Source of the DNA: an uncultured Verrucomicrobiota bacterium
Lineage (GTDB): Bacteria > Verrucomicrobiota > Verrucomicrobiia > Limisphaerales > UBA1096
Assembly (NCBI GenBank): GCA_913030945.1
Contig: CAJWEP010000001.1
Coordinates: 1 to 58,140 of the forward strand
DNA: 58,140 bases
Reading direction: 5' to 3'
Below, piece after piece: positions 5,447-58,140 of this stretch. Both the position numbers and the translations under genes were made by a program. Positions within the stretch are counted from its first letter, which is position 1; every line of letters begins with the position of its first letter. The notes under the pieces are model-generated. The model was not told the DNA's origin. It saw only the letters and a program-made list of their open reading frames with translations, and ran no database searches.

Positions 5447-6622
5447 TCAGCGCTTGGCCAAGTCACGGACATAAACGTTCGCAAAGTCGATTGGGCCGGT
5501 CGGCACAATCTTCAACGGCCCTCGGGCCGGCACGCTGCCTAGTTTTTTGTCGGTGAAAACCGGCTTGCCGTTGACGTTCAGGCTAAGCCGGTCGCCGCGC
5601 AACCCGCCCTCGAACCGGTTCCAGTTGCGCCCCTTCAAAACCAGAGTGTCCTTGTACAACGAAGGCGCAATCGTGATGGCCGTCGCCTTCGAGCCGCGAA
5701 GCTGGAACGCACACGGCTGGCTTTCCCCGGACACGCGAACATCAAAGATAAAGCCAAAGTCACCGAACAACTCGGCGGTCTGGATCGACTTGTCCGTCGC
5801 CTCCGATTTGCCGTCGAAACGAAACATCCAGTTGCGCGACTGCCAATGTGGCTCGCTGCCTTTGCCCAGACGCCACCCGGAAAAATCGACGCCCGAGTAC
5901 AAGCAGCGATAACCTCGATTGGAAATAGCCACCTGCCCCGGCTCAAGCGGTGTCGCTGGCAGTTCCCTGATGCGCAGGTTACGGTAATGCACCACGCCTC
6001 CCTCCGACTCGAGGCAGATGTAGCCCTTGCGCGGGCTAGCCTCCCTGCCGCGCGTGACCACCTTACCGTTGACCGCCAGCGAGATGTTCCCGTCATTGCA
6101 AACGATCCGGTAATGGTTCCACTCCGGGCTGGGTCTGGAGCGAAACTCCGTCGGGAACGCCCGGCTGCCACCCCGTCCATTGACCGGCGTCATCGTCGCG
6201 CCGTGGATCGGAAAAATGTCGCCGTGCACCGTGTGCCCCCCGGAGTTCCCGTAGGCATTTTCCAGCACCTGCACCTCAACGCTGCGGTGAAATGGCTGTC
6301 CGCGCGCCGTGATGTCGTCGGCCCAGACAAAAATCCCGGCGTTGCCCCTGGGCTTCATATGCCGCCACTCCACCTCCATGATGAAGTTTTGGTACATCCG
6401 CACCGTGCGCAACTCGCCAGTCGGCTGGCCGGAGCACACGATCATTCCGTCGCGCACCGTCCAGGTCGACGGCGCAGTGTTCACCGGCACCCAGCCGGAA
6501 AGGTCCTTCCCGTTGAACAGCGGCCGAAATCCGTTCTCCGCCTTTTCCTCAGCGGCAGCCGATGCAGCCGACAGCGAAACGGCGGCAACAAAACGAATGA
6601 TCCTCTTTTTGTCGAAACGCAT
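5447..6622 (-). CDS. Secreted protein with two DUF1080 (3-keto-disaccharide hydrolase-like) domains
   Basis: 'FRPLFNGKDLSGWVPVN...WTVRDGMIVCSG...NFIMEVEWRH...GNAGIFVWA...YRNLRIREL', followed by a second repeat 'LYSGVDFSGWRL...FANVYVRDL'. Confidence 0.8.
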   Translation of the reverse strand: MRFDKKRIIRFVAAVSLSAASAAAEEKAENGFRPLFNGKDLSGWVPVNTAPSTWTVRDGMIVCSGQPTGELRTVRMYQNFIMEVEWRHMKPRGNAGIFVWADDITARGQPFHRSVEVQVLENAYGNSGGHTVHGDIFPIHGATMTPVNGRGGSRAFPTEFRSRPSPEWNHYRIVCNDGNISLAVNGKVVTRGREASPRKGYICLESEGGVVHYRNLRIRELPATPLEPGQVAISNRGYRCLYSGVDFSGWRLGKGSEPHWQSRNWMFRFDGKSEATDKSIQTAELFGDFGFIFDVRVSGESQPCAFQLRGSKATAITIAPSLYKDTLVLKGRNWNRFEGGLRGDRLSLNVNGKPVFTDKKLGSVPARGPLKIVPTGPIDFANVYVRDLAKR

Positions 6623-6642
6623 GATGGGCGGAGAGTGCCCAC

Positions 6643-6663
6643 GGCCAAGCGCTTGGCCAAGCG
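6643..6663. repeat. Intergenic doublet of the iterated palindrome
   Basis: ggccaagcgcttggccaagcg contains the overlapping palindromes CCAAGCGCTTGG and GCTTGGCCAAGC. It lies in the divergent DUF1080/tetR spacer. Confidence 0.8.
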
Positions 6664-6727
6664 GAATCCCCGGCTGACCGGCAGCCGGCCAACGGCGGAA
6701 CTGGGCGCCGCACCCAAAAAAACAGGG

Positions 6728-6756
6728 TTGACGTCCGGAGCGCCGGCGGCTAAAAC
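6728..6756 (+). promoter_or_regulatory. Sigma70-like promoter of the tetR-efflux operon
   Basis: TTGACG (6728-6733), 17-nt spacer, TAAAAC (6751-6756), 33 nt upstream of the tetR ATG. Confidence 0.4.
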
Positions 6757-7466: not shown

Positions 7467-8897
7467 ATGCGCCGCCCACTCTCCATCACCGCGGCGGGCC
7501 TTCTGCTCGCCGGTTGTGCCACCGACTCCAACCGGACGGCTAGGGATTTTGCCAACGAACTACCCACCGAATGGACGGCCCCGGGCGTGAGCACCGGCCA
7601 GGCGGCGGCATTTTGGTGGCACAACTTTCGCGACGACCAATTGAGCGAGGCGATCGGGCAAGCCCTCGCCGCCAATCCGGATGTCTGGAGCGCCGCCGCC
7701 CGGCTCGAGGGCGCGTGGGCGCAGGCCAGGATCGCCGGCGCGGAACAGTTGCCCCAAATCGGCCTCAGCGGCGGCCTCTCAAAAAGCAAACTGAACATGG
7801 CGCAGTTCGGCTTCAAACTACCGGGGGGGAATCTGCCCAACGCATTCGTGAACGAACGCCATAACCTGACACTGGGCGCGCAGTGGGAACTCGACCTGTG
7901 GGGCCGCATACGCGCCGGCAAACGCGCTGCCCGCGCGAACGCGCTTGGCCAAGCGGCGGAGTTCGCCGGGGCTCGCCACTCGCTCGCCGGCCAAGTGGCC
8001 AAGGCTTGGATGCTGACCATTGAAGCACGACAACAGGCGCGCCTGGCAAAGTTTGCCGTCTCCACGCACGAGACGACGGTGGCGCAGGTTCGCACCCGGT
8101 TTGAGCAAGGCATTTTATCGTCACTGGACTTGCGCCTAGCCAGGGCCAACCTCGCCGTGGCCAGAGCGCAAGTCGCTGAACTCGAGTCGGTTGCCAGCCA
8201 AATGATTCGGCAGCTGGAGATTCTGCTTGGCCAATTCCCGGCCAACAAACTGGCGATTCCTGCGAAATTGCCCGAGGTGCCCCCGGCGATCCCGGCGGGC
8301 GTTCCGGCACAGATTCTTTCGCGACGGCCCGACCTCGTCGCCGCCGAGCAACGACTGTTCGCCACCGGTGCGACGCTCGCCCAAGCCAGGGCAACGCTCT
8401 ACCCGCAGATCAGCCTGACCGGCAGCAGCGGCACCTCGACGAGCGAACTCTCCGGGCTGCTCTCGGGGGACTCAGTGGTCTGGAATGTCGCCGCCAACCT
8501 GACACAACCGGTGTTCCAGGCCGGCCGGCTGCGCGCCAACGTTCGCCTGCAACGGGCCAACCTGAAAGCCGCCGAGGAAAGCTTCCGCTCGACAATGCTC
8601 GTAGCGATGGGCGAGGTGGAAAACGCACTCGACGCCGGTCGGCAACTGGCCACGATGGACGAGGCGCTTGGCGTCGCATACGAGCAGTCACAAGCCGCCG
8701 CGCAAGTCGCGCAGGAACGATTCGACCGCGGACTCGGGGACATGATCACGCTACTCGAAGCGCGCCGCCGCGCGATCAACGCCGAGGGCCAATGGAGGGC
8801 CGCACGGCGTCGCCAACTGGAGAACCGGATCAATTTGCACCTCGCCCTTGGCGGCGGGTTTGAATCGTTGAAGAGCAATGGAACCGCAAGGCAGTAA
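7467..8897 (+). CDS. Efflux outer-membrane factor lipoprotein (NodT/TolC family)
   Basis: Lipobox 'LLLAGCATD'. Two OEP-type repeats ('FWWHNFRDDQL', 'ILSRRPDLVAAEQRL', 'LYPQISLTGSSG'). In an operon with MFP and RND genes. Confidence 0.85.
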   Translation: MRRPLSITAAGLLLAGCATDSNRTARDFANELPTEWTAPGVSTGQAAAFWWHNFRDDQLSEAIGQALAANPDVWSAAARLEGAWAQARIAGAEQLPQIGLSGGLSKSKLNMAQFGFKLPGGNLPNAFVNERHNLTLGAQWELDLWGRIRAGKRAARANALGQAAEFAGARHSLAGQVAKAWMLTIEARQQARLAKFAVSTHETTVAQVRTRFEQGILSSLDLRLARANLAVARAQVAELESVASQMIRQLEILLGQFPANKLAIPAKLPEVPPAIPAGVPAQILSRRPDLVAAEQRLFATGATLAQARATLYPQISLTGSSGTSTSELSGLLSGDSVVWNVAANLTQPVFQAGRLRANVRLQRANLKAAEESFRSTMLVAMGEVENALDAGRQLATMDEALGVAYEQSQAAAQVAQERFDRGLGDMITLLEARRRAINAEGQWRAARRRQLENRINLHLALGGGFESLKSNGTARQ

Positions 8898-10116
8898 CCC
8901 CAACCGCAGGCTGAAAATCACCGGTACGTTTGCCGTGGCCATCATCGGCATCGGCCTCGCCGCCGTGCTGGTGAAGATCGGCAGGAAACCGGAATCGCAA
9001 ATCGCCAAATCAAAGCTACCGAGTGTGGAGGTGCAAATCGCGGAAGCGACCCGGCACACGTACCGGATTCAATCGCAGGGAACCGCCCTGCCCCGGACAA
9101 ACATTCGGCTCGTGAGCGAGGTCAGCGGCAAGGTGGTGTCGGTCGCGGAGTCATTCGACGCCGGACAGGTTTTTGCGAAGGACGACGTGCTGCTGAAGAT
9201 CGATTCGCGGGACTACGAACTGACGCTCGCGCAGGCGAAGTCACAGGTCGCCCAGGCGGAGTTGCGGTTGCTGATGGAGATCAAGGAGGCGGATGTCGTT
9301 CGTCGTGAATGGCAGTTGCTCAACCAGGGTGAGCCGACCGGTCTGCAGGCGCGCGAGCCGCAACTCGCCAGCGCCCGCGCCGCGCTTGAAGCCGCCCGTG
9401 CCACCGAGGAGGCGGCCAGGCGCAACCTCGACCGGTGCGAGATGCGTGCGCCGTTCGACGGCATGGTGGCCAGGACGAATGTGCGCCTTGGACAATTCGT
9501 CGCCTTGGCCACGCCGATTGGTGAGTTGTTTGCCACCGACGTTGCCGAGGTGCGTTTACCTTTGAATCCCAGTGACTTGGGCTTCATCAATGTGCCCAGC
9601 CCTAACAGGGAAACAGCGCTTGGCCAAGCGCCTAAGGTGATCCTCAGCGCAAGGGTCGGGAAAAGGAGCACGGAGTGGCAAGGCCATATTATGCGCTCGG
9701 AGGAAACGGTCGATCCGGTGAACCGAATGGTTTACGTGGTGGCACAGGTCGCCGACCCGTACGGCTTGACCAAGCGCAACGACGCGCCGCTGCGGAGCGG
9801 GACATTCTTGCGGGCCAGCATCGAAGGCCGCACACAGGAAAATGTCATCGTGATGCCGCGTCAGGCGCTTCGCGGGAAGGATCGTGTCTGGATCGTGAGC
9901 GAAGAAAGCACCCTGCATAAGTGGCTGGGGTACAGGGAGCCCGGTCACCAAAACCGGCTTACATTCAGGTCGGTGGTTGTTTCCTTCGCGGACGCCCGAC
10001 AGGTGGTCGTCACGGATGGCATCCGGGCGGGCGAGCAGGTGATCACTTCACTGCTTGCGGGAGCGATCAACGGCATGGCCGTGAAGGTTCGCGAACCGGA
10101 CTCGACGAATGAATAG
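8878..10116 (+). CDS. Efflux RND periplasmic adaptor (membrane fusion protein, HlyD family)
   Basis: N-terminal TM segment; lipoyl/coiled-coil pattern 'DDVLLKIDSRDYELTLAQAKSQVAQAE...RCEMRAPFDGMVA'. 20-nt overlap with the upstream gene and 8-nt overlap with the downstream gene. Confidence 0.85.
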   Translation: MEPQGSNPNRRLKITGTFAVAIIGIGLAAVLVKIGRKPESQIAKSKLPSVEVQIAEATRHTYRIQSQGTALPRTNIRLVSEVSGKVVSVAESFDAGQVFAKDDVLLKIDSRDYELTLAQAKSQVAQAELRLLMEIKEADVVRREWQLLNQGEPTGLQAREPQLASARAALEAARATEEAARRNLDRCEMRAPFDGMVARTNVRLGQFVALATPIGELFATDVAEVRLPLNPSDLGFINVPSPNRETALGQAPKVILSARVGKRSTEWQGHIMRSEETVDPVNRMVYVVAQVADPYGLTKRNDAPLRSGTFLRASIEGRTQENVIVMPRQALRGKDRVWIVSEESTLHKWLGYREPGHQNRLTFRSVVVSFADARQVVVTDGIRAGEQVITSLLAGAINGMAVKVREPDSTNE

Positions 10117-13100
10117 CCTGATCGAATGGTTCGCGAAGAACGGCGTCGCTGCAAACCTGCTGGCGATGTTCATCGTCGTGGTCGGTTTCCTGTCGATCGG
10201 GACGCTGCGGCAGGAGGTGTTCCCCGAGTTTTCGTCGGACATGATTCACATCGCCGTGCCCTACCCCGGCGCAGCGCCGGAGGAGGTGGAGGAGGGCGTC
10301 TGTCAAAAAATCGAGGAGGCGGTGTATGGCCTGACGGATGTCCGGCGGGTCAACTCGATCTCGTCTGAAAATGCCGCCGCGATCATGGTCGAGTTGATGC
10401 CCGGCTCGGACGCCTCCCGCGCACTCGACGAGATCAAGGCGCGTATCGACGCCATCGACACCTTTCCCGGAGAGGCCGAGAAGCCGGTGATCGAGGAGAT
10501 CATCATGCGCAAGCAGGTAATCAACGTCGCCGTGTCTGGCGAGGCGGGCAATGTCTCCGAGGCGACGCTGCGGCATTATGCCTCGCAGGTGCGCGACGAG
10601 TTGATGGCGCTGTCCGGCATCACGCAGGTGGAACTAGCCAATGTGCGCGACCTCGAGGTGTCGATCGAGATTTCCGAGGATGCGCTGAGGCAGTACGGCC
10701 TGACGTTTAACGAGGTGGCGCGGGCAGTCCGGAGTTCGTCCATCGACCTACCAGGCGGCTCGATCAAGGCCGATCGCGGGGGCGAAATCCTACTGCGAAC
10801 CAAGGGCCAAGCGAAGCGGGTGGTGGATTTCGAGCAAATTGTGCTGCGAACGCGCCCGGACGGCACGCGTCTGCGGCTTGGCCAAGTGGCGACGATCCAC
10901 GACGGTTTTGAGGACAACGACCGCGAGTCGTACTTCGACAGCAAGCCGTGCGCCCTCGTGAAGGTGTTCCGTGTCGGCGAGGAGAACGCCATTGCCATCT
11001 CCGAGATCGTTCATGAGCACGTCGCTGGCTCGAGGGATCGCTATCCGGAGGGCATCGAGTTGACGACCTGGCAGGATGACTCGACGTATCTGCGTGGACG
11101 GCGCGACCTGATGATCCGCAACGGCCTCACCGGGTTCTGTCTCGTGTTCCTCGTGCTGGCGTTGTTTTTACGTTTCCGACTGGCCTTCTGGGTGAGCCTG
11201 GGCATCCCGATCTCGTTTCTCGGCACGTTTTGGCTGATGCCGGCGTTGGACGTGTCGATCAGCATGATCTCGCTCTTCGCGTTCATTGTGGTGCTCGGCA
11301 TCGTGGTGGATGACGCCATTCTGATCGGCGAGAACATCCACGCGCATCACGAGCAGGGCACCCCCGGGCTAAAGGGTGCAATCGCTGGCGCCACAGAAAT
11401 GGCAAAGCCAGTATTCTTCGCTGTGGCGACCTCGATCGCCGCCTTCGCGCCGTTGATCTTCACTGCCGGCAACACCGGCAAGATCATGAAGTTCATCCCG
11501 CTGATCGTGATCCCAACGCTGTTTTTCTCGCTGATCGAGTCGCTGTTCATCCTGCCGAAACACCTCAGCAACCTGCGTAGGGTCGACAACATCGAACAAG
11601 GTACCGGGTTAGTCGGCAGATGGAGGCGGTTCCAGCACCGGTTCGTCGTGCGGATGGACCAGTTCATCCTCCGAATCTACAAGCCGAGCCTGCGCTGGTG
11701 TCTCGAGTGGCGATACATGACCATGGCCATCGCCGTGGCGATGTTCGCCATCACGATGGGACTCGTGGCAGGCGGGCACATCCGATTTGTATTTTTCCCG
11801 CCAGTTGAGGGCGACAACGTGGCCGCCACGGTCACCATGCCGCTGGGCACCCCCACCGAGGAAACCAAGCGCGCCGTGAAGAAACTAGAGAAGGCCGCCA
11901 TTGAGGTACAGAAACGGCTCGATGCCAGGACACCGGGAGACCACCCCAGCATCGTTCGTCACATGCTCAGCTCAGTGGGTAGCCAACCATTCAACACCGA
12001 CCAGAGTCGAGCCGGAGGCAGGGTCACTTCCTCCATCAAGGGCACAAATACCGGTGAGGTACACATCGAAGCTTTGCCAGCCGAGGAGCGAATGTTCAAC
12101 AGCTACGAGGTGGCGCGGCTTTGGCGCGATATCGTCGGCGACATGCCGGAGGCCGAAGAACTGCAGTTTACCGCCGACATCTTCCAGGCCGGAGACGCAA
12201 TCAACGTCGTGCTCACCGGTGCGGACTTTGACCAACTGCAAGACGCTGCCGGGTGGCTCAAGCAGGAATTGGCCAAGCTCAGAGGCGTCATCGACATCAC
12301 TGACTCGTTTCGACATGGCAAGGAAGAGGTGCAGTTGAAGATCAAGCCGGAGGCTGAGGCGCTTGGCCTGACGCAGGCCGACCTGGCGAGGCAGGTGCGG
12401 CAGGCGTTTTACGGGGACGAGGTGCAGCGGCTCCAGCGCGGGCGCGACGACGTCAAGGTCATGCTCCGCTATCCGCGCGAAGAACGCCGCAGCGTCGCCA
12501 ACCTCGAGCGGATGCGCGTCCGCCTGCCGGGCGGCATCGAGGTGCCGTTTGGCGAGGTGGCCAGCGTGACCCACGGCCGCGGCTACGAATCGATTCGGCG
12601 CATCGACCGGCGGCGCGCCGTCAACGTCACCGGTGACGTCGATGCCACCATCGGCAACACACAGGAGATCAACCGTCAACTCGAAACCGAACTGCTCCCC
12701 AAAATGCAGCTGGAGTTCCCCGGCATCTACTGGTCGTTCGAGGGCGAGAAGAGCGAGCAGGCCGAGACTCTCGCGAGCCTGCAGTACCTCTACATCATCG
12801 CGCTGGTCATCATTTATGGGCTGCTGGCGATTCCATTCAACTCGTACATCCAGCCGGTCATCGTCATGGCAGCGATTCCGTTCGGGCTGATTGGGGCGGT
12901 CTGGGGGCACGTCGTGATGGGCATGGATATCACCATTCTTTCCGGCTTCGGCGTCGTGGCATTGACCGGCGTGGTCGTCAACGACAGCCTCGTGATGGTG
13001 GACTATGTCAACCGCAAGCGCGGCATCGGCCTGAGCGAGATGGAGTCGGCGTGCCAGGCCGGCCTGGCCCGTTTTCGGCCGATCCTGCTCACGTCGCTCA

Positions 13101-13298: not shown

Positions 13299-13317
13299 GC
13301 TTGGCCAAGCGCTTGGC
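13299..13317. repeat. Intergenic doublet of the iterated palindrome
   Basis: gcttggccaagcgcttggc, 8 nt after the RND stop codon. Confidence 0.8.
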
Positions 13318-13347: not shown

Positions 13348-14808
13348 GTGAAGCGCCTGTTTTTTTCTCTGACGATTCTTTGTGCGCTTGGCCTGCAATC
13401 CATCTCCGCAGCCAAGCCGAATATTTTGTTCATCATGGTCGATGACCTCGGCAAGGATTGGATTTCCTGCTACGGCGCGGACGACATCGACACACCGAAC
13501 ATCGACCGCCTGGCCAAGGGCGGTCTCAAGTTTCACAACGCATGGTCGATGCCGCAGTGCACGCCCACACGTGCCACACTACTTACTGGACAATACCCGT
13601 GGCGCACCGGCTGGGTGAATCATTGGGACGTGCCGCGATGGGGTGTCGGCTACTTTGACTGGGCCAAGTACACCACCTTCGCGGAGGTCATGAAATCCGC
13701 CGGGTACGCCACGGCCATCGCCGGCAAATGGCAGATTAACGACTTCCGGCTTGAACCGGAGGCGCTGCGAAAACACGGCTTCGACGACTGGGCGGTCTGG
13801 ACAGGCTACGAAACCGGCAACCCGCCGAGCAACGAACGCTACTGGGATGCCTACATCCACACGCGCGCCGGAAGCAAAACCTACAAGGACAAATTCGGGC
13901 CAGACATTTACTGCGACTTCCTCATCGACTTTATGAGGCAGCATCGCGACGAGCCGATGATGCTCTACTTCCCGATGGCGCTCACGCACGGCCCGCTTGT
14001 GCCGACTCCTGACGAGCCGAAGGTCACTGCGGGCAAGGACAAGCTCAAGGCCATGGTGCACTACACCGACAAACTCGTCGGGCGTCTGGTCGGCACGCTC
14101 GACGACCTAAACATCCGCAACCAAACAATCGTGATATTCACCACCGACAACGGCACGAGCGGCGGGATGCGCGGCACGACCAAAGGCAAGCGTCCCAGCG
14201 GCGGCAAGGGCTCGAAGTACGAGGGCGGCGTCTGCCAGCCGTTCATCGTCAACTGCCCCGGCCTTGTCCCCGGCGACCGCGAGACCGACGCGCTGACCGA
14301 CTTCTCCGACCTACTGCCGACCTTCGCCGAACTTGGCCAAGCAAAGCTGCCTAAGGGTGTTACGCTCGACGGCAAGTCGTTTGCTCCGCTGCTGCTTGGC
14401 CAGACGGACGACTCGCCACGCGACTGGATCATGGCGCTTGGCCACGGTGCAGGGCGACTCGACAAAAACGGCGTACGCGGTACCAACGATTTTGCGGACC
14501 GCGTCCTTCGCGACAAACGCTACAAGGTCTGGCTGGAGCACGAGCCAAAAATCACCGCGCTGTACGACCTCAAAACCGATCCGCTCGAGCAAAATAATTT
14601 GCTCAACAGCGACAAGCCGAAGCACTTGGCTGCGCTTAAAAAATTCCGAGCTATCATTGGCAGCCAACCGAAGATTGATGGCCGCCCGCTCTATCGCCCG
14701 CGCAAGACCAACTCGTGGGACAAGCAATTACAGTTCAAGGTGGAGAAACCGGCGGGCAACAAGCCCAAGCGCGAACGTCGACGCAAACGCAAGGCCGCCC
14801 AGCAATAA
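13348..14808 (+). CDS. Secreted sulfatase (Cys-type, C-T-P-T-R)
   Basis: 'KPNILFIMVDDLG', 'PQCTPTRATLLTGQYPWRTG', 'GKWQ', 'FTTDNG'. Start placed at GTG 13348 (VKRLFFSLTILCALGLQSISAA signal); the track start at TTG 13318 is possible. Lys/Arg-rich C-terminal tail. Confidence 0.85.
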   Translation: MKRLFFSLTILCALGLQSISAAKPNILFIMVDDLGKDWISCYGADDIDTPNIDRLAKGGLKFHNAWSMPQCTPTRATLLTGQYPWRTGWVNHWDVPRWGVGYFDWAKYTTFAEVMKSAGYATAIAGKWQINDFRLEPEALRKHGFDDWAVWTGYETGNPPSNERYWDAYIHTRAGSKTYKDKFGPDIYCDFLIDFMRQHRDEPMMLYFPMALTHGPLVPTPDEPKVTAGKDKLKAMVHYTDKLVGRLVGTLDDLNIRNQTIVIFTTDNGTSGGMRGTTKGKRPSGGKGSKYEGGVCQPFIVNCPGLVPGDRETDALTDFSDLLPTFAELGQAKLPKGVTLDGKSFAPLLLGQTDDSPRDWIMALGHGAGRLDKNGVRGTNDFADRVLRDKRYKVWLEHEPKITALYDLKTDPLEQNNLLNSDKPKHLAALKKFRAIIGSQPKIDGRPLYRPRKTNSWDKQLQFKVEKPAGNKPKRERRRKRKAAQQ

Positions 14809-18221: not shown

Positions 18222-18239
18222 GCTTGGCCAAGCGCTTGG
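18222..18239. repeat. Intergenic doublet of the iterated palindrome
   Basis: gcttggccaagcgcttgg fills most of the 31-nt spacer between the M42 peptidase and hydrolase genes. Confidence 0.8.
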
Positions 18240-21154: not shown

Positions 21155-21221
21155 CGAACCACTGCTTGGCCAAGCGGAGTTTGCGCTTGAGCGCGGGCTG
21201 GGCCGGGGTGAACCTTGCCGC

Positions 21222-23938: not shown

Positions 23939-24045
23939 TTCACTTGGCCAAGCGCCAGCCGTCGATATTCGAACTCGGCCCTTCTTTGCATCAATGGATT
24001 TTGAACGAGCGATAGACGATCGGAGTCCATAAACGGCTCAGGAGC

Positions 24046-24756: not shown

Positions 24757-24783
24757 TGATTAAACTTTCACAACAGGCATAAT

Positions 24784-25542: not shown

Positions 25543-25570
25543 ACGATCCAGCCAAGCGCTCGTGTCCAGA

Positions 25571-26908: not shown

Positions 26909-27053
26909 TGCACAAAGACCGTCAGTTCTATCATCTCACAATTCAAGTGGATTTACTCGTTATTCGCGCTTGGCCAAGCAGAATTCCGTAAATTACTTGG
27001 CTTTTCTTCACTGTCGGGACCGCGCACAACGGCTGGAATGAGAGCGAAACCCC

Positions 27054-40464: not shown

Positions 40465-40477
40465 CGGTCTCGTTTAA

Positions 40478-42226: not shown

Positions 42227-42269
42227 CGGCGGAGGCTCTCCGAAAACGGGCGTTATGTCGATCGGTTTT

Positions 42270-42285
42270 GCGCTTGGCCAAGCGC
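42270..42285. repeat. 16-bp perfect palindrome copy
   Basis: gcgcttggccaagcgc followed by gctttttt, in the divergent amidohydrolase/dusB spacer. Confidence 0.8.
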
Positions 42286-42342
42286 GCTTTTTTGTCGCGG
42301 CGTTTTTTCCGAGTGGCGTAGACTGCCGGGAGCGTTTGCGTC

Positions 42343-46429: not shown

Positions 46430-47140
46430 TCAAATATTGATCGGCTCGATGCACTCAGGCACCTCAAAACGGGGATTATTCATCAGCGGCGTGACATAGT
46501 GCTCCTGCATCGGCTCGTCGTTGAACGGCCGCAATAACCGCTTTAAATCGGCCGCTTTGCTTTCGAGTGAAAGCCAATTGCCGTAGTCGGCAGGATGGAC
46601 GATCACCGGCATGCGGTCGTGCACGCGCTTGGCCAAGCGATTGGGCGTCGTGGTGATAACGGTAAAGGTGCGTAGCGTCTCGACCTCCGCTTGGCCAAGC
46701 CCCGGCAACTCCGGCTCGGCAACCTGCTCCGGTATCATCCATGTTTCCCACAGTCCGGCAAGGCAGAACAGGTCGCCGTTACGCATTGAGTAGTAAACCG
46801 GCTGCTTGCCGCCTGGCCGCGATTCCCACTCGTAATAACCGTCCACCGGCAACAGGCAGCGCCTCCGCTGAAATGGCTTTCGGAAACTTGGCTTCTCGTC
46901 GATTGTCTCCGCCCGCGCGTTGGCCAACTTGGCCCCGATCGACTTGTCCCTGGCCCAAGACGGGATCAACCCCCACCGCATCGACTCCAGCCGGATGTCT
47001 CCCGGTTCGTGAACGGCCACGAGCGCGTTTTGGGTTGGCGCAAGGTTCAACCGGGGCGTGACCGGCGGTGCATCGCCCCTGGCCTTCACCTTCTTTTTGA
47101 CCTTGTCCCTGCCGGAACCCTGTGCCACCCGACAACACAT
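46430..47140 (-). CDS. SOS response-associated peptidase (SRAP/YedK, abasic-site crosslinking)
   Basis: N-terminal 'MC' (Cys2 nucleophile), 'RWGLIPSWA', 'CLLPVDGYYEW', 'FTVITTTPN...HDRMPVIV'. Confidence 0.85.
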   Translation of the reverse strand: MCCRVAQGSGRDKVKKKVKARGDAPPVTPRLNLAPTQNALVAVHEPGDIRLESMRWGLIPSWARDKSIGAKLANARAETIDEKPSFRKPFQRRRCLLPVDGYYEWESRPGGKQPVYYSMRNGDLFCLAGLWETWMIPEQVAEPELPGLGQAEVETLRTFTVITTTPNRLAKRVHDRMPVIVHPADYGNWLSLESKAADLKRLLRPFNDEPMQEHYVTPLMNNPRFEVPECIEPINI

Positions 47141-48682: not shown

Positions 48683-48798
48683 GAGGAAGTGCTTATTCCG
48701 ACACCGCAGCCAGGGAGGCGGAGTCAGGAGGCAGCTTATTGGCTCGACTCCGCTTGGCCAAGCCCTACAATTCGCGTCCCCGACAAATCCAGAAATCC

Positions 48799-50298: not shown

Positions 50299-52530
50299 TT
50301 GAGCAATCTAATTGATCGAGCGGCGATACAGCGGACAACAATCTTCACAACACTTTTAATGCTTGGTCTTGGCCAAGCAGCAATCGCCGCCGAGCACTCC
50401 ATCATCGCGCCGGAAAGCAAAGGCACTTTCCGGGGTCGTCCAACCGTCGCTGCTGCGCGCGTCAACCAAGCCCCCGACATCGACGGTCATCTTATTGACG
50501 AAACATGGAGCTTGGCTCAGCCGGCTGGCGAGTTCTTTCAAAAGGAACCCAAGCAGAATATACCACACTCACAGCGCACCGAGTTTCGTGTACTCTACAA
50601 TAATGATACCCTATTCGTTGGCGTGTGGTGTTTTGATACGGAGGCCCGCAATATTATTGCCCACACCATGGAACGTGATGTTATGATGCGTTATGAAGAC
50701 ATGGTAAATATCACCCTTGATACCTTTCAAGATCGCAGGAATGGCTATGTATTCACAATTAATCCTAATGGAGGCAGAAGTGATGCAACTGTTAGCAACA
50801 ATACTTCGCGCAACGGTGAATGGGATGGGGCGTGGAAAGCGAAAAGTAAAAAACATGCCTGGGGTTGGAGCACTGAGGTAGCCATCCCTTTCAAGTCATT
50901 GAGTTTTGACGAAAAGAATGACAACTGGGGAATCAACATCTACCGAAATATTGGTCGTTTTGGAGAACGGGGTCAGTGGGCTAACTCACGTCCACCCAAT
51001 CGCAGTTATTATATCTCAGAGTGTGGCAACTTGACTGGACTGCATGGGCTAAAACAGGGGATGGGGCTGGATATCACGCCTTATGCAACGGGCAAATACA
51101 GTAAGGACTATGACTCCAATGATTCTGATCTACTTGGGGACTTTGGTTTCGATGTCCGCTATCGACTCACGCCCAGCCTGACTGCCCTAGCCAGCATAAA
51201 CACCGATTTTGCAGAAGCAGAAATCGACACACGCCAGGTGAACTTCACACGTTACCCGCTGTTCTTTCCCGAGAAACGGCAGTTTTTCCTCGAAGACTCT
51301 GGCATCTTTGGTTTCGGAGGCGGAGAATCATCCCGCCGCCGGTCGGGTGCTCTGCTGATGCCTTTCTTCAGTCGACGTATTGGCCTAAGCAGCAATGGAC
51401 AGATTGCCCCCATTCATTTTGCCGGAAAAGTGACAGGGCGTGTTAAAAACTACAACATTGGCCTGCTCGACGCGATGGTGGAAGGAGACAACCATCCTCG
51501 CAATGCTTTCGTCGGCCGCGTCAGTCGCAATGTATTCGAGCAATCGTCGTTCGGATTCCTGACCACCGTGGGTGATCCCAACTCGGATGAAATGAACTCG
51601 GTGACGGGTGTCGACTTTCAGTACCGCAACACTGACTTCATGGGGGGACACACCTTCGAGGTAAACCTTTATGCGCTTGGTTCCTACTCCGAGGATTTGG
51701 GCGGCTTGGAACCGGCCTGGGCAACCAACGCAAAGTTATATGACCGGAATATCGAACTGTCGGCCAGGGTGATGGAGATCGGCAACGACTTCAACCCGGC
51801 CATGGGCTTCGTACGTCGGCGAGGAACACGGCGTTACATGCTCGCAGCGGATTTCACACCCTACTTCGAGGAAATCAGTTGGTTGCGAAACACCCGCCAC
51901 GGTTACGAGGCGGAGCTTTACACCGATCTCGGGAATGATGTCGTGAACACCAAGCAGACCTTCAACCTGGCATCCCTTTCCTTTGAAAGTCAGGAACTTC
52001 TCTCTTTTTCGGTCTCGCACTTTACTGATCGCCCGAAAAAGGACTTTGATATTTCGGATGGAACTGTCATTCCGGCGGGGGATTATGATTGGTGGAATGC
52101 GAGGCTTTCTTTGAATACCGGTTTGTATCGAAAGTTCGCCGCAGCCAACTCCTACACCGTGGGCGGGTTTTACGATGGCAACCGGCAACAACTTTCGTCT
52201 ACACTCGTTTATCGTCCAACGAAACGGATTTCACTCACCTTGGATTACTCCTTGAACCTCATTGATTGGGAGCAATTTGAGGATTCAACTATTAATCTGA
52301 TTTCCGGAAGGGTTCAGTACAGTTTTACCCCGGATCTGACCCTCTTCAACCTGATCCAGTATGACGACATATCAAATTCAATCGGGGTCAACAGCCGGCT
52401 GCAGTGGGAGTACAAACCGGGGGCAAAAATGTTCTTTGTGGTCAATCAGGGGTACGTCGACGAGATGACCGGCTTCGTGATCAAGGACCTTGAGGTGGTG
52501 GCCAAGGTTGGCGGACTGTTTCGTTTTTAA
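50299..52530 (+). CDS. Secreted CBM9-like plus DUF5916-type beta-barrel protein (tandem paralog A)
   Basis: Signal 'LLMLGLGQAAIAAE'. N-terminal 'APDIDGHLIDETWSLAQPAGEFFQKEP...LYNNDTLFVGVWCFD' is CBM9-like. The long C-terminal region with alternating beta-strand pattern ends in '...VVAKVGGLFRF'. The DUF5916 assignment is from memory. Confidence 0.65.
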   Translation: MSNLIDRAAIQRTTIFTTLLMLGLGQAAIAAEHSIIAPESKGTFRGRPTVAAARVNQAPDIDGHLIDETWSLAQPAGEFFQKEPKQNIPHSQRTEFRVLYNNDTLFVGVWCFDTEARNIIAHTMERDVMMRYEDMVNITLDTFQDRRNGYVFTINPNGGRSDATVSNNTSRNGEWDGAWKAKSKKHAWGWSTEVAIPFKSLSFDEKNDNWGINIYRNIGRFGERGQWANSRPPNRSYYISECGNLTGLHGLKQGMGLDITPYATGKYSKDYDSNDSDLLGDFGFDVRYRLTPSLTALASINTDFAEAEIDTRQVNFTRYPLFFPEKRQFFLEDSGIFGFGGGESSRRRSGALLMPFFSRRIGLSSNGQIAPIHFAGKVTGRVKNYNIGLLDAMVEGDNHPRNAFVGRVSRNVFEQSSFGFLTTVGDPNSDEMNSVTGVDFQYRNTDFMGGHTFEVNLYALGSYSEDLGGLEPAWATNAKLYDRNIELSARVMEIGNDFNPAMGFVRRRGTRRYMLAADFTPYFEEISWLRNTRHGYEAELYTDLGNDVVNTKQTFNLASLSFESQELLSFSVSHFTDRPKKDFDISDGTVIPAGDYDWWNARLSLNTGLYRKFAAANSYTVGGFYDGNRQQLSSTLVYRPTKRISLTLDYSLNLIDWEQFEDSTINLISGRVQYSFTPDLTLFNLIQYDDISNSIGVNSRLQWEYKPGAKMFFVVNQGYVDEMTGFVIKDLEVVAKVGGLFRF

Positions 52531-52549
52531 TCATTGAGTGGAATAATAG

Positions 52550-54820
52550 ATGGGGCATGTCTTTATAACCAAAACGCGATTTCTTCATGCACAACCGAGA
52601 TGCTTTTACCGAGCATTAGCCTTGGCTTTTGGTGTGGTCCTTGGCCAAGCGTTGGCGGCTGAGATTCCCAAACCATCAGCGATCTCGCCTGAAAGCCGAG
52701 GCACATTTCGAGGTCGGCCCACCGTAAAGGCAGTGCGCGTCGACCAAGCCCCTGACATCGACGGCCATCTCATTGACGAACCATGGCACTTGGCCAAGCC
52801 GGCCGGTGAGTTTCTTCAAAAGGAACCCAAGGAGAATGTGCCACACTCTCAACAAACGGAATTCCGGGTCCTCTTCGACGACGATGCATTGTACATCGGC
52901 GTGTGGTGCTTCGACACCGAGTCTGATCGCCTTGTTGCGCTCAACATGGAAAGGGATGGTCATATGCGTTTTGAGGATGTGGTGATGATTACCCTGGACA
53001 CCTTTTTGGATCATCGGAACGGCTACCAATTTTCGGTCAACACGAACGGAGCGCGCGGCGATGCCACGATCAGTAACAACACCTCCGTTAGCTCCGAGTG
53101 GGACGGGGCATGGATGGCAAAAAGCAGGCGACATGTCTGGGGATGGAGCACCGAGATCTCTATTCCGTTCAAGACCATTAGTTTTGACGAAACCACCGAC
53201 ACTTGGGGATTCAACATCTACCGCAACATCGGACGTTCTAATGAAAGCGCTTTGTGGGCCAACTCGCGCGCCTCAGTCCGAGGCTATCATGTGTCCGAAT
53301 GCGGTGACCTGACCGGATTGCACGGGCTCAGGCAGGGGCTTGGTCTGGACATTACGCCATATGCGACGGGTAAATACCGCAAGGACTACGACGCAAAGGA
53401 CTCGGATTTGCTTGGGGACTTTGGTTTCGATGTCCGGTACCGGCTCACTCCCAGCCTGACCGCCCTTGCCAGCGTCAACACCGATTTCGCGGAGACGGAA
53501 ATAGATAGACGTCAGGTTAATTTAACTCGTTACCCCTTGTTTTTCCCCGAGAAACGTCAGTTTTTCCTCGAAGACTCCGGCATCTTCGGTTTCGGCGGCG
53601 GGGAATCGTCCAGACGCCGATCACGGGATTCGTCGGACACACTGTTGATGCCGTTTTTCAGTCGTCGAATCGGCCTGAGCAGTAAAGGACAAATCATGCC
53701 GATACACTTTGCAGGAAAGCTTACCGGCCGTATTAAGGATTATAACATCGGCCTGCTTGATGCCGTGCTCGACGGGGAAGACGGCCTGCGAAATGCTTTT
53801 GTTGGCCGGGTTAGCCGCAACCTTTTCGAGCAGTCATCCGTTGGCTTCCTGACCACCATTGGTGATCCCGACTCGGATGAAATGAACTCGGTCACAGGTC
53901 TCGACTTCCAGTATCGAAACAGCAACTTCTTGGATGGACGCACCTTTGAGGCCAACCTGTTTGCGCTTGGTTCCAGTTCGGAGGACTTGGGTGGACTGGA
54001 GCCGGCCTGGGGTGCCAGTACAAAACTGTACGACCGCAACATCGACCTCTCAGCCAGCGCAATGGAGATCGGCGATGATTTCAATCCGGCCATAGGGTTT
54101 GTTCGGCGCCGGGGCACTCGTCGGTACATGGTCGAGGCGGATTTTACAACCTACCACGACAACATCAGTTGGTTGCGGAACACACGCCATGGCTACGAGG
54201 CGGAACTCTACACCGACCTTGGAAACGACGTTGTGAATACCAAACAGTCGTTCGATCTAGTTTCACTCTATCTCAAGAGCCAAGACTATATATCGCTAAA
54301 GATGTCGCACTTGACGGATCGGCCCGCTGATGATTTTGAAATCTCCGACGGTTCGATCATCCCTGCCGGAGATTACGAATGGTGGGATGTTCGGTTGTTA
54401 GGCTATTTGGGCATGAACCGATTACTGTTTCTTAGGCCCATGTACAGGGTCGGCGGCTTTTACGATGGCACGAGACAACAGATCGAGCTTGAAACACGTT
54501 ATATCCCATGGCCCAAGCTCCGTTTAAGCGTTGATTACTCCCTGAACCTGATCGATTGGGAGCAGTTTGAGGATTCCACCATCAATGTCATCTCAGGAAT
54601 GGTCCAGTATAGCTTCACACCAGATTTGGTCCTATCGAACCTCATCCAGTACGATGACATCTCGAACTCTATGGGTGTCAACAGTCGCCTTCAGTGGGAG
54701 TACAAGCCGGGCGCGAAGATGTTTTTCGTGGTGAACCAGGGCTACGTGGACGAGATGACCGGCTTCGTGATAAAAGACTTCGAAGTCGTGGCCAAAATCG
54801 GGGCGCTGTTCCGCTTTTAG
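52550..54820 (+). CDS. Secreted CBM9-like plus DUF5916-type beta-barrel protein (tandem paralog B)
   Basis: Collinear with 50299..52530 along the whole length, with high identity at protein and DNA level; for example 'DLLGDFGFDVRYRLTPSLTALAS', 'RYPLFFPEKRQFFLEDSGIFGFGGGESSRRRS' and 'RLQWEYKPGAKMFFVVNQGYVDEMTGFVIKD' are identical. Confidence 0.65.
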   Translation: MGHVFITKTRFLHAQPRCFYRALALAFGVVLGQALAAEIPKPSAISPESRGTFRGRPTVKAVRVDQAPDIDGHLIDEPWHLAKPAGEFLQKEPKENVPHSQQTEFRVLFDDDALYIGVWCFDTESDRLVALNMERDGHMRFEDVVMITLDTFLDHRNGYQFSVNTNGARGDATISNNTSVSSEWDGAWMAKSRRHVWGWSTEISIPFKTISFDETTDTWGFNIYRNIGRSNESALWANSRASVRGYHVSECGDLTGLHGLRQGLGLDITPYATGKYRKDYDAKDSDLLGDFGFDVRYRLTPSLTALASVNTDFAETEIDRRQVNLTRYPLFFPEKRQFFLEDSGIFGFGGGESSRRRSRDSSDTLLMPFFSRRIGLSSKGQIMPIHFAGKLTGRIKDYNIGLLDAVLDGEDGLRNAFVGRVSRNLFEQSSVGFLTTIGDPDSDEMNSVTGLDFQYRNSNFLDGRTFEANLFALGSSSEDLGGLEPAWGASTKLYDRNIDLSASAMEIGDDFNPAIGFVRRRGTRRYMVEADFTTYHDNISWLRNTRHGYEAELYTDLGNDVVNTKQSFDLVSLYLKSQDYISLKMSHLTDRPADDFEISDGSIIPAGDYEWWDVRLLGYLGMNRLLFLRPMYRVGGFYDGTRQQIELETRYIPWPKLRLSVDYSLNLIDWEQFEDSTINVISGMVQYSFTPDLVLSNLIQYDDISNSMGVNSRLQWEYKPGAKMFFVVNQGYVDEMTGFVIKDFEVVAKIGALFRF

Positions 54821-55945: not shown

Positions 55946-55972
55946 GCCGCCGCCTGGCCAGGCGCTGTCGGG

Positions 55973-56638
55973 TCATTCGGAGAAAAGGCGGCCGAAGAGT
56001 TTGTTGAGCAGCACCTTCCAGGTAACCTTGGTGGCGATTCGGTCGAAGAGCGAGCGCAGGTCGCTGAGTTTCTCAACGTCCTTCACGGTGTAGTCCTCGA
56101 TGTTGATATTGACGTCGCGGGATTTCCCGGCGTCGGCGAGATGGGTGAACTTCAGCCGCTCCCACGAGAAGGTCAGGGTGTCAATGGTGAAGTAGAGCGG
56201 TGACTCACCGAGCGCGTGCTGGGCCGACGACTTGGCCACGGCGTCCGGCAGCGAGATGAGGTTGCGCTCGCCTCCCTTGGTTTCCACGAGATTGAACTCG
56301 GTGATGCCGATGCGCACCAGCCGGAAATGCGGCTTGAGCTTGCGCCGCACGTTCATCAACTCCGAGAAGTCGCAGTCGATGAACAGGTCGTCGATCTTGA
56401 GCATCGGCGCGCCGCCGTACTCGGGCAGATTCCAGATGGTTACGTCGTAGGCGGAGACGGTGGAGTTGAGCGGAAAACCGATCTCGAGCTGGCCGATCCT
56501 GGCATCCATCCCCTGCTCGCGAAACTCGCTGACGATCCACCACTTGGCCAGGGCGTCCTTGGTGAGGAATAGCCCGATTGCGACAACCAGTAACAAGATG
56601 AGCAGGCGAAACGCCCAGCGGAACAAAAACCGCATCAA
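55973..56638 (-). CDS. Hypothetical N-terminally membrane-anchored protein
   Basis: 221-aa ORF with the single TM 'LLILLLVVAIGLFL'. The frame is coding-like, but no family was recognised. Confidence 0.45.
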   Translation of the reverse strand: MMRFLFRWAFRLLILLLVVAIGLFLTKDALAKWWIVSEFREQGMDARIGQLEIGFPLNSTVSAYDVTIWNLPEYGGAPMLKIDDLFIDCDFSELMNVRRKLKPHFRLVRIGITEFNLVETKGGERNLISLPDAVAKSSAQHALGESPLYFTIDTLTFSWERLKFTHLADAGKSRDVNINIEDYTVKDVEKLSDLRSLFDRIATKVTWKVLLNKLFGRLFSE

Positions 56639-56683
56639 GCGGACTTACCAAAAGCCGGCCCGACTGACAACGCGAAATACGGC

Positions 56684-58140
56684 TCAAGCCGGGCCGGGCT
56701 CAACAAACTGGAGCACCTCGCGATGGTTGAGCTTGCCGGTGCCGAGTTTGGGCAACTCATCCATCACCCGCAGGTCTCGCGGCACGCAGAGGTTGGTCAT
56801 TCCCGCCGCAGCGATGGCCTTGCGAATCTCGGCCAGTTTCAGTCTCGGCTCGTTGGTCACAGCGACGAGTTTCTCCCCCTTGTCAGCGTCCGGCAACGCC
56901 ACAACCGCCACCTCGCATTCCTCGCCGTGCTGCGGGAACGCGCCGGCCAGCGCATCCTCCACCGCCGTCAGGCTCACCATCTCGCCACTGACCTTGGCGA
57001 AGCGCTTGGCCCGGCCTCGAACCCAGAAGTAGCCGTCGGCATCGACGTGGATGATGTCGCCGGTGTCATACCAGCCGCCGAGCGCCTGGAACGCCTCGTT
57101 GGCGTCGGCGTTGAGGTAACCCTTCATCACGTTAGGGCCACGGACGAACAGACGACCAGCATCCGCCACGCCATCGATTGCCTCGAGCTTCCACTCGATG
57201 CCCGGCAACAGCCTACCCACGGAGCCAAACCGGTTGTCGGCCTTGGTGTTGGCGCATATCGCCGGGGCGCACTCGGTCACGCCATACGCTTCCGTGATAC
57301 GAACGCCAAACTTTCGCGCCCATGTGTCAGCCGTGGCCTGCTGCAGCTTCTCCGCGCCGGCGAGCAGGTAGCGCAGGTTGCGGAAATCGTACGGATGCGC
57401 CTTACGCGCGTAGCCGTTAAGGAACGTGTTCGTGCTGAGAAACATCGTTGCGTTGGAGTTATACACAGCGGTCGGGATCTGCCGGTACTGCAGGGGTGAC
57501 GGAAACACGGTGGTACGAATTCCCCGGCACAACGGCAGCAGCGTGCCGACAACCAGGCCGAAGCTGTGAAACATCGGCAGGCAGTTGAAGAGGCTGTCGG
57601 TGTCCATCACGTCCACGGCGGCAAACAACTGCCGCAAATTGGCAAGAATGTTGCGGTGCGTCAGCTCGACCCCCTTGGGCACGCCCTCCGAGCCGCTGGT
57701 AAAGAGAATGACCGCCGTCCGATCGGATGGGATGTTGAACCGCGCCTGGCCAAGCGCCAGCCGGTGCCGGAGGAACACAGCCAGCTTGGCCAAGCGGGAA
57801 ACCTGTTTCCGGATGTCCTCGAGATAGATGAACTCGATGCCGGTCGCCTCCATCGGAGCCACGTCCAGCTTGGCCTTGGCCAGAAACACACGCGACGTGA
57901 TGACCTGCCTCACCCCGGCCAACTCGGAACAGGTGAGCATCAGCGGTACGCCGCTGGAGTAGTTAAGCACGGCGGGGATCATGCCGATGCGCCACAGGGC
58001 AAGAACTGTGATCGCCGTGCCGTTCACATTGGGCAGCAGCACGCCCACCCGCTCCCGTCCCGGATCGAGCAGTCGCCGGAACCGCCCGTCCAGCACTTCC
58101 GCTCCAACCATCACCATGCGGTGCCGGAGCGCCTGGCCGG
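56684..58140 (-). CDS. AMP-dependent acyl-CoA/acyl-ACP synthetase (adenylate-forming, Aas-like), 5' end probably outside the window
   Basis: 'ILFTSGSEGVPKGVELTHRNI' (A3 core), 'YGVTECAP', 'WYDTGDI', 'GRAKRFAKVSGEMV'. The reading frame stays open from ATG 58117 to the window edge. Confidence 0.8.
   Translation of the reverse strand, partial: GQALRHRMVMVGAEVLDGRFRRLLDPGRERVGVLLPNVNGTAITVLALWRIGMIPAVLNYSSGVPLMLTCSELAGVRQVITSRVFLAKAKLDVAPMEATGIEFIYLEDIRKQVSRLAKLAVFLRHRLALGQARFNIPSDRTAVILFTSGSEGVPKGVELTHRNILANLRQLFAAVDVMDTDSLFNCLPMFHSFGLVVGTLLPLCRGIRTTVFPSPLQYRQIPTAVYNSNATMFLSTNTFLNGYARKAHPYDFRNLRYLLAGAEKLQQATADTWARKFGVRITEAYGVTECAPAICANTKADNRFGSVGRLLPGIEWKLEAIDGVADAGRLFVRGPNVMKGYLNADANEAFQALGGWYDTGDIIHVDADGYFWVRGRAKRFAKVSGEMVSLTAVEDALAGAFPQHGEECEVAVVALPDADKGEKLVAVTNEPRLKLAEIRKAIAAAGMTNLCVPRDLRVMDELPKLGTGKLNHREVLQFVEPGPA

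Follow-up and report, generated by a model that had tools for sequence, protein, structure and literature searches.

A highly iterated palindrome, apparently an undescribed counterpart of HIP1 and DNA uptake sequences, in uncultured marine Verrucomicrobiota

Contig CAJWEP010000001.1, assembled from an uncultured bacterium of the phylum Verrucomicrobiota, raises the question of why a single short palindrome, CTTGGCCAAG, should recur throughout a 58,140-nt stretch (hereafter, the window), both within genes and between them. The word, a palindrome of 10–14 bases with the full form (CG)CTTGGCCAAG(CG), was first noticed by eye in a first-pass annotation of the window, which reported 29 exact copies; a pattern search returned the same 29, with a single correction of one base (46628 rather than 46627). 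Markov models of order 0 to 3 predict 0.07–0.33 copies in the window (0.18 for the second-order model), whereas in dinucleotide shuffles of the same sequence 0.09 copies are expected and the largest number obtained is 1. The description of the word as an oligomer over-represented hundreds-fold is thus borne out, and CTTGGCCAAG ranks top among all 10-mer palindromes of the window. Of the 29 copies, sixteen are part of GCTTGGCCAAGC and seven of CGCTTGGCCAAGCG. The exact copies are surrounded by a cloud of variants, with 37 one-mismatch sites in the window compared to 3.9 expected; the five such sites originally singled out are all present, although their total had been put at only about ten, and the relative CGCCTGGCCAGGCG is found at 55951 as described.

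Could the composition of the encoded proteins account for this abundance? When synonymous codons were shuffled within each gene, so that the proteins were kept, the genes of the window contained on average 1.19 copies and never more than 6 in 1000 trials; when the order of codons was shuffled instead, 0.17 copies are expected. The observed number of copies in genes is 19. The enrichment therefore does not vanish under either codon-aware null, and codon or amino-acid usage is rejected as the cause of the abundance of the word.

The next question is whether the word is a peculiarity of this locus or a property of a lineage. The UvrA protein encoded in the window occurs unchanged on many marine metagenome contigs, and a scan for its homologs in one genome per GTDB species yielded 80 loci, nearly all labelled Verrucomicrobiota. 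Ten of these species (L131–L139 and L143) are close relatives, with UvrA proteins 78–89% identical to that of the window and loci that are syntenic with it at 76–89% nucleotide identity. In all ten, CTTGGCCAAG is the most frequent 10-mer palindrome, with 0.22–1.27 copies per kb, that is, with a five-fold variation in density among sister species. By contrast, the 70 distant loci, in which UvrA is at most 58% identical, contain 2 copies in 1.31 Mb, as many as chance would give. These distant loci are nearly all labelled Verrucomicrobiota, including Limisphaerales, Chthoniobacterales, Akkermansia, and Luteolibacter, with three Deltaproteobacteria/Desulfobacterales labels and one that reads only "bacterium." The PSCyt and DUF1559 domains encoded in the window were considered as a mark of planctomycete origin and rejected as such, given that the relatives identified through UvrA are Verrucomicrobiota.

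A scan of metagenome contigs from JGI for pairs of copies no more than 30 bp apart identified at least 120 loci (825 kb), mostly marine. Among the matches listed, these 120 loci contain 437 copies beyond the search seeds (0.53 per kb), 65 of the 92 loci that reach 3 kb carry 0.3 or more extra copies per kb, and one locus overlaps the window. The densest loci carry ordinary chromosomal genes typical of bacteria of the Planctomycetes–Verrucomicrobia–Chlamydiae (PVC) group. When the window, the ten loci of close relatives and 72 of the metagenome loci were pooled (818 kb of clade DNA), 673 copies of CTTGGCCAAG were counted compared to 2.6 expected, 144 of the 673 being search seeds. On the strength of these assemblies, obtained independently from NCBI, ENA, and JGI, the word is enriched about 200-fold, is genome-wide within the clade, and is missing from its nearest sampled relatives. 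The first-pass annotation had allowed that the copies might be confined to this locus as parts of a single mobile element; their presence in ten species and at least 120 metagenome loci, with no conserved flank beyond 3 bases, shows that they are neither.

The anatomy of the word delimits the unit that is iterated. Adjacent to the 10-mer, C is preferred at +1 (72%), G at +2 (64%), and C or G at +3, and no information is detectable farther out, so that the full form is a dyad of 14–16 bp, (G)CGCTTGGCCAAGCG(C), without any longer surrounding element. The observed/expected ratio rises with the length of the word, from 3 for TGGCCA to 19 for TTGGCCAA, 257 for CTTGGCCAAG, and about 1000 for GCTTGGCCAAGC. 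The half-site was tried as the real unit and rejected: outside the exact 10-mer, CGCTTGG is about 3-fold over expectation, much of this excess consisting of near-copies, and such a weak elevation implies that the unit is the full dyad. In the pooled clade DNA, one-mismatch variants cluster at the outer positions (172, 168, 48, 38, and 32 variants at half-site positions 1 to 5, respectively), constraint being strongest at the center. The changes are mostly transitions at the majority of half-site positions, and the variant found most often, CCTGGCCAAG, leaves the encoded residues unchanged in both of the reading frames that are used. Taken together with the distribution described above, it is very likely that CTTGGCCAAG is the core of a 14-bp dyad, CGCTTGGCCAAGCG, which represents a genome-wide, lineage-specific, highly iterated palindrome of an uncultured marine clade of Verrucomicrobiota, present at 0.2–1.3 copies per kb.

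Outer-biased variants have also been reported for HIP1 (highly iterated palindrome 1; GCGATCGC) of cyanobacteria (PMC4390886), and one explanation of the present word is of the HIP type: an orphan methyltransferase acting on the TGGCCA/GGCC core, coupled to methyl-dependent or very-short-patch-like repair, would create the word and restore it when damaged. In addition to the variant spectrum, the perfect symmetry of the word and its core, which is of a classic type II kind, are compatible with this explanation, as are the differences in density among sister species and the apparent decay in one subclade (L132, L136, and L137; see below), which would fit the gain or loss of a single enzyme, and the presence of the word on a phage-like contig. 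The suggestion of the first-pass annotation that GGCC or TGGCCA is a modification core is, however, not borne out so far. Outside the context of the 10-mer, TGGCCA occurs at expectation (571 compared to 520 expected), the observed/expected ratio of GGCC is 0.95, and a specificity of 14 bp exceeds that of the usual methyltransferase sites. Variants of the C-to-T type at the central GGCC are neither in excess nor in deficit, and no signature of 5-methylcytosine decay is seen there in the pooled variant spectrum. A search of 3913 open reading frames (ORFs) in about 1 Mb of clade DNA with M.HaeIII, M.HhaI, Dam, CcrM, and Vsr as queries, together with methyltransferase motifs, revealed no C5, N4, or N6 methyltransferase and no Vsr homolog, which is a weak negative, considering that the DNA sampled covers only part of the genomes and that the query sequences were entered by hand. 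A sequence-specific repair bias could raise the frequency of a palindrome, as Dcm/Vsr could for CCWGG in Escherichia coli, but enrichments due to such known repair biases are small, far below 200-fold, whereas that of the present word exceeds 150-fold with a specificity of 14 bp. Overall, we regard the methylation-linked explanation as rather doubtful.

Where do the copies lie with respect to genes? The gene table of the window was compiled from the ORF list, Pfam scans, and gene calls on identical metagenome contigs. Coding sequences occupy 93% of the window, leaving 4.1 kb (7%) of intergenic DNA, and it is in this small fraction that 10 of the 29 copies are located (1 per 410 bp), compared to 19 within genes (1 per 2.8 kb), two of which fall on the last codons; the gene context given in the first-pass annotation, including the intergenic enrichment, is thus correct. 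The intergenic copies are found between the divergent hydrolase and TetR genes (6652–6661, preceded by a partial copy, GGCCAAGCG, in 12-bp register); 8 bp past the RND stop codon and 8 bp ahead of the sulfatase start (13300–13309); 8 bp past the stop codon of the M42 peptidase gene on the minus strand (18223–18232); 10 bp past that of a DUF1559 pilin-like gene (21165–21174); 4 bp past that of a KamA-like gene (23943–23952); on either side of a low-GC island (26969–26978 and 34418–34427); 30 bp upstream of the shikimate dehydrogenase gene (34440–34449, kept in L131, L133, and L135); upstream of Dus (42273–42282); and between the divergent UbiD and sulfatase genes (48753–48762).

The in-gene copies in the window are read in two frames, as L-A-K in 11 cases and as L-G-Q in 8, and in none as W-P. 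The L-G-Q copies lie in genes for an OEP/TolC protein (7944–7953), a HlyD membrane-fusion protein (9619–9628), an RND transporter (10877–10886), a sulfatase (14332–14341), PanB (21732–21741, kept in L133 and L138), and a SRAP protein (46690–46699, minus strand), and in the first and the second of two CBM9/DUF5916 genes (50368–50377 and 52640–52649). The L-A-K copies are located in an AXE1-like gene (16710–16719 and 16878–16887, minus strand), the KamA-like radical SAM gene (23884–23893, kept in L131, L133, and L138), uvrA (38646–38655 and 38814–38823), a PPDK_N-domain gene (44830–44839, minus strand; kept in L133, L137, and L138), the SRAP gene (46628–46637), the second CBM9/DUF5916 gene (52789–52798), and the gene for an AMP-binding enzyme (57785–57794, minus strand), and on the last codons of a 3-keto-disaccharide hydrolase gene (5453–5462, minus strand; ..LAKR*) and a BNR gene (25574–25583, minus strand; LAKRLAK*, followed in 12-bp register by a one-mismatch copy at 25586). 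The counts of the two frames agree with those given originally, but the statement that the W-P frame is never used held only for this small sample: in the related DNA (760 kb of pooled clade DNA without the window, with crude gene calls), the respective numbers are 336, 213, and 40, so that W-P accounts for 40 of 589 in-ORF copies, being strongly disfavored but not forbidden. Enrichment is therefore not found in all three frames.

The word has left a marked imprint on the proteins. LAK is the commonest tripeptide of the window proteins (31 occurrences compared to 8.3 expected), LGQ is found 20 times compared to 4.8 expected, and 14 of the 31 LAK tripeptides are spelled TTGGCCAAG, compared to an expected fraction of 0.046. 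Both tripeptides are thus raised about 4-fold by the word, and protein sequences have been rewritten by it.

With respect to gene ends, 45 copies are located 4–19 bp past stop codons compared to a baseline of about 16, whereas no such peak precedes start codons (crude gene calls). This peak is what would be expected of an element acting in RNA, namely, hairpins at the 3′ ends of genes which terminate transcription or stabilize the RNA, the in-gene copies being by-products. A case in point is the copy at 42273, which is followed by a T-run, CGCGCTTTTTTGTCGCG; in L133 and L138, the word and the T-run stand directly past the stop codon of a plus-strand gene that is missing from the window, and there the combination looks, from its sequence, like an intrinsic terminator. 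The T-run segment itself (42270–42300) is conserved in all relatives, and L132 has the same plus-strand gene and T-run without the word. As a general role, however, termination or RNA hairpin formation is mostly rejected: about two thirds of the window copies are in genes, with a larger share in the denser genomes; the hairpins that the 10-, 14-, and 16-mer are predicted to form are weak (0, −3.5, and −6.9 kcal/mol, respectively); a T-run accompanies 1 of the 12 intergenic or gene-end copies, that at 42273; and 26 of 36 tandem 22-mers lie inside ORFs, without a T-run. No RNA family of Rfam was detected in the window. An RNA-level element is thus a very improbable explanation of the word, although the excess of copies 4–19 bp past stops suggests that a minority of them may have acquired a role at gene 3′ ends.

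How did the copies arise, and are they maintained? Their origin can be followed in uvrA, which has five relevant sites. At four of them, the proteins of the clade have RLAK where outgroup Verrucomicrobiota have varied residues, with equal length against most outgroups; the copies at 38646 (kept in 6 of the 7 relatives compared) and 38814 both encode (R)L-A-K at residues variable in outgroups. At the fifth site, the universally conserved RLGQP is written with a near-copy of the word. The appearance of RLAK in weakly constrained segments without a change of length indicates that the copies arose by substitution rather than by insertion. Once formed, they are retained beyond background in part of the clade. 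Word sites of the window are kept at 8 of 9 positions in L133, 4 of 5 in L135, and 8 of 12 in L138, compared to fractions of 0.10–0.18 for control 10-mers, and reciprocal site-conservation tests in the same three species gave P values of 1e-4 to 2.5e-3, few of the sites being non-coding. The conservation extends to synonymous positions: where the amino acid is unchanged, in-word codons are identical in 85 of 89 cases compared to 54–79% elsewhere, a difference that is significant for L133, L137, and L138. At the strain level, L001–L010 offer few variable sites. We are, therefore, highly confident that the copies were made in place by point substitution and subsequently kept at the DNA level wherever coding allows, in genes and intergenic regions alike.

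Maintenance is not uniform across the clade. Turnover of sites is seen at 37386 and 37437, where nearly every species has either the exact word or a different one-mismatch variant. In the subclade comprising L132, L136, and L137, the G+C content is lower (0.545–0.56), the density is 0.22–0.35 copies per kb, and exact copies are outnumbered by one-mismatch ones; here the force that maintains the word seems to have weakened, and the word appears to be decaying.

Conservation of this kind would also be expected if the word were an array of binding sites for a dimeric nucleoid or chromosome-organizing protein, each site being directly selected for its contribution to chromosome structure. Information that falls off outwards along a 14-bp dyad typifies the footprint of dimeric DNA-binding proteins, sites and synonymous positions are kept across 13–23% nucleotide divergence, and the intergenic enrichment in the window points in the same direction. 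Furthermore, close pairs favor a 12-bp offset, CTTGGCCAAG-CG-CTTGGCCAAG (41 of about 135 pairs within 40 bp), as would suit side-by-side binding; most of these 12-bp tandems are inside ORFs, where they code for LAKRLAK or LGQALGQ. Known site-specific nucleoid proteins, however, such as ParB (parS), Noc, SlmA, and MatP, use tens of sites each, rather than thousands. The five-fold range of density among sisters and the decay of sites in one subclade sit poorly with direct selection for structure, as do the many sites that were acquired at the cost of amino-acid changes; periodic spacing of the HIP type (10–90 kb) lies largely beyond the scale of the 58-kb window and of loci of at most 25 kb, and the explanation comes without a candidate protein. 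We consider a chromosome-organizing role unlikely.

A further explanation holds that the copies are remnants of dispersed mobile elements, similar to miniature inverted-repeat transposable elements (MITEs) or repetitive extragenic palindromic (REP) sequences and the bacterial interspersed mosaic elements (BIMEs) that they form, which are likewise short, palindromic, and numerous. In its favor, a two-gene cassette (23956–25570, with hypothetical genes at 24046–24756 and 24784–25542) is enclosed by identical 16-bp direct repeats, TCACTTGGCCAAGCGC, which contain the word, the copy at 23943 being the core of the left repeat and that at 25574 the core of the right one. L131 has no cassette and a single decayed copy of the repeat at the junction; given that L133, L135, and L138 carry the cassette, the L131 case is most simply a deletion between two copies. 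Homologs of the cassette, about 69% identical, are placed elsewhere in L132, L136, and L137 (after LytB in L137). The boundaries of synteny blocks seemed to coincide with copies at 23943/25574, 34418, and 42273. However, in an all-against-all survey of about 11 clean insertions and deletions, the word was found at both junctions in 1 case, at one junction in 2, and at neither in 8, and a role of the word as a general insertion/deletion or recombination junction was rejected. Gene content between UvrA and Dus differs among the species compared, with four or five versions, and in L136 a precise 2.4-kb deletion extends from inside a DUF1559 pilin-like gene to just before the copy at 42273 (39856–42265 of the window), via the microhomology GCGGGC and not the word.

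More fundamentally, REP elements are extragenic, 20–40 bp long, have conserved flanks, and are spread by transposase-like RAYT enzymes, whereas the word occurs mostly in genes (19 of 29 copies in the window), originated by substitution, and shows conservation that stops 3 bases on either side; the in-frame copies in conserved genes left gene length unchanged, and the same word recurs in the independent assemblies. The defining properties of REP and MITE sequences are thus absent, and the limit of the flanks together with substitution without length change refutes a mobile element for practical purposes. Considering also the codon-aware nulls (0.17–1.19 compared to 19), it is extremely unlikely that mobile-element remnants, codon or amino-acid usage, or chance account for the word.

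One part of the window lacks the word altogether. The 7.4-kb low-GC stretch between 26979 and 34417 (G+C about 0.46–0.52) contains no copy. It is bounded immediately on its left by the copy at 26969, which is polymorphic among strains, and on its right by the copy at 34418, the left edge of which is the exact end of the island and the point at which homology with all 7 relatives begins. The island encodes ankyrin-repeat proteins, small hypothetical proteins, a He_PIG/Ig-like protein, LytB, and an HTH protein; its ankyrin/He_PIG part is variable among strains and species. L133, L135, and L138 lack the segment 28.96–34.41 kb, and in L008 and L010 everything to the left of 32743 differs from the window, the alternative flank in L008 carrying a transposase gene (HTH_Tnp_1 and rve domains), native-looking genes, and 4 word copies in 6.1 kb. 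The word is thus missing from DNA that we regard as foreign.

The word is found, on the other hand, on a putative viral sequence. L079 (IMGVR_UViG_3300032087_002358; 13670 bp, GC 0.54) is phage-like, with genes for a large terminase subunit (3800–5416) and a DnaB helicase (8213–9646), and has 4 exact copies (6553, 8935, 11278, and 12221) and 6 one-mismatch copies, close to host density; its gene content and word density suggest that it may be a phage of this clade. The viral contig L056, with 3 exact copies, is a weaker case. Scanning viral contigs with the 14-mer gave single chance copies among the matches listed. Fourteen IMG/VR contigs (L211–L224; G+C 0.35–0.74) each contain two copies of CTTGGCCAAG within 30 bp of each other, with none elsewhere on the contig; such pairs appear above a rough estimate of chance.

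Which of the known iterated words does the present one resemble? Similar to HIP1, it is a perfect GC-rich palindrome, with an observed/expected ratio of about 160–260 under a second-order Markov model, compared to 16–317 for HIP1 (Xu et al. 2018, PMC5861425). Both words occur in genes and between them (about 0.2–1.3 copies per kb for the present word), have consensus sequences that extend palindromically, show one-mismatch variants biased to the outer positions (Elhai 2015, PMC4390886), are conserved at orthologous sites above control words (in our case in L133, L135, and L138, but not in L132, L136, and L137), and are absent from islands. The single deletion between two copies of the word recalls the HIP1-flanked smtB deletion cited in bioRxiv 10.64898/2026.06.24.733823. 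The differences are, however, substantial: the sequences are unrelated, with neither a GATC nor a CGATCG core in the present word, which belongs to Verrucomicrobiota rather than cyanobacteria; the present word is longer, with a 10-bp core within a 14-bp consensus and an inner hexamer that is not enriched on its own; its in-gene copies fall predominantly in two reading frames, in contrast to HIP1, for which every frame is enriched; and the search for a cognate methyltransferase in about 1 Mb of clade DNA gave none.

The word also resembles the uptake signal sequences (USS) of Pasteurellaceae and the DNA uptake sequences (DUS) of Neisseriaceae. These are 9–12 bp long, occur about once per kb, are lineage-specific, and are surrounded by a one-mismatch cloud, as is the present word; they raise the corresponding tripeptides 2-fold, sit where the protein is weakly conserved, and do not occur in genes that have no homologs in relatives (Findlay and Redfield 2009, PMC2817400). 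For the present word, the tripeptide excess is 4-fold, and the preference for poorly conserved residues, the absence from recently acquired genes (the low-GC island), and the excess just past stop codons are shared. By contrast, USS and DUS are asymmetric, whereas the word is a perfect dyad and is known here from sequence alone, and its pairs are 12-bp tandem overlaps inside genes rather than inverted terminator pairs. Thus, the word is not HIP1 and cannot be filed as an uptake sequence, yet it is of the same phenomenological kind as both, and in this sense the comparison drawn by the first-pass annotation with HIP1 and with DUS/USS, including the tolerance of particular frames and the intergenic enrichment, stands. 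No published description of this word, or of any such word in Verrucomicrobiota, was found in the full-text literature library searched, and it is apparently an undescribed counterpart of HIP1 and of DNA uptake sequences.

For HIP1 itself, both methylation-linked repair (Elhai, PMC4390886) and selected chromosome-structure sites (Xu et al., PMC5861425) have been proposed, and in recent work on HIP1, transformation is reported to be enhanced and the word to be correlated with genes for the type IV secretion system (T4SS) and for natural competence. The abundance of USS and DUS is attributed to molecular drive through biased uptake and recombination (PMC2817400). Among the possibilities considered, we tentatively favor, by analogy, a fixation bias of this uptake or recombination type, mediated by a dimeric DNA-binding protein, while recognizing that it may well prove wrong. 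In outline, a lineage-specific dimeric protein would read the 14-bp dyad and act on DNA entering the chromosome or recombining with it, in the course of uptake, transformation, or recombinational repair; word-bearing DNA would be favored, such that alleles creating the word would reach fixation more often than those destroying it. Copies would then pile up where constraint is least, namely, in intergenic DNA, in variable protein segments, and in the L-A-K and L-G-Q frames, and recently acquired DNA would remain word-free. The preference stems from the pattern as a whole, given that words of 9–12 bases at about 1 per kb, a cloud of variants, raised tripeptides, weakly conserved residues, and absence from new genes are the hallmarks of uptake sequences; the links of HIP1 to transformation and competence point the same way, and the variation in strength of the word among sister lineages can be likened to uptake-sequence dialects.

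Several considerations weigh against the uptake or recombination bias. Known USS and DUS are not palindromes, and competence and an uptake receptor are without support in these bacteria; the competence-related genes of the window amount to RadC and the two DUF1559 pilin-like genes, which carry no evidential weight. Site conservation would be equally expected from direct selection on an array of binding sites or from biased repair, and in L132, L136, and L137 the sites are not conserved above background. The copies on L079 are more easily explained by an intracellular process, such as repair, methylation, or binding of a host protein, unless the phage is temperate. Finally, the evidence is all comparative, the organisms being uncultured. 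A more specific version, in which the word would be a self-recognition tag for DNA exchange, that is, a dyad uptake or recombination signal, possibly read by a pilin-like N_methyl/DUF1559 protein, a type of protein that is very numerous in PVC bacteria, seems to us questionable at present.

Several additional features of this DNA are worth recording. The hexamer GGGCCC, which is unrelated to the enriched word, is avoided in the pooled clade DNA (40 copies compared to 315 expected, observed/expected 0.13), compared to a ratio of 0.41 in outgroup Verrucomicrobiota; this avoidance could result from an ApaI-type restriction system. The two CBM9/DUF5916 genes are adjacent paralogs (743 and 756 residues; 50299–54820) in a segment of lower G+C content (0.53). 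The gene for an EF-hand protein (43512–44135, minus strand) contains an imperfect 24-bp tandem repeat at 43939–44020, and its product comprises 174, 191, 198, or 207 residues on contigs from different metagenomes that are otherwise 99.2–99.6% identical, indicating that the number of repeats varies between strains.

For three decades the abundance of HIP1 has been a puzzle, and nearly all work on it concerns a single phylum; an unrelated word that behaves alike in Verrucomicrobiota represents an independent replicate of the phenomenon. Moreover, the clade offers natural contrasts that make the competing explanations separable, with densities of 0.2–1.3 copies per kb in sister species, a subclade that is apparently losing the word, and a phage-like contig that carries it. 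In practical terms, the word offers a sharp criterion for assigning contigs to the clade during binning and for recognizing foreign DNA in them, and perhaps for linking phages to this host. If it is indeed a self-recognition tag, natural transformation, or a new DNA-level drive, would be active in an abundant uncultured marine clade, and the word would join HIP1 as a second, independent example of a palindrome driven through a genome.

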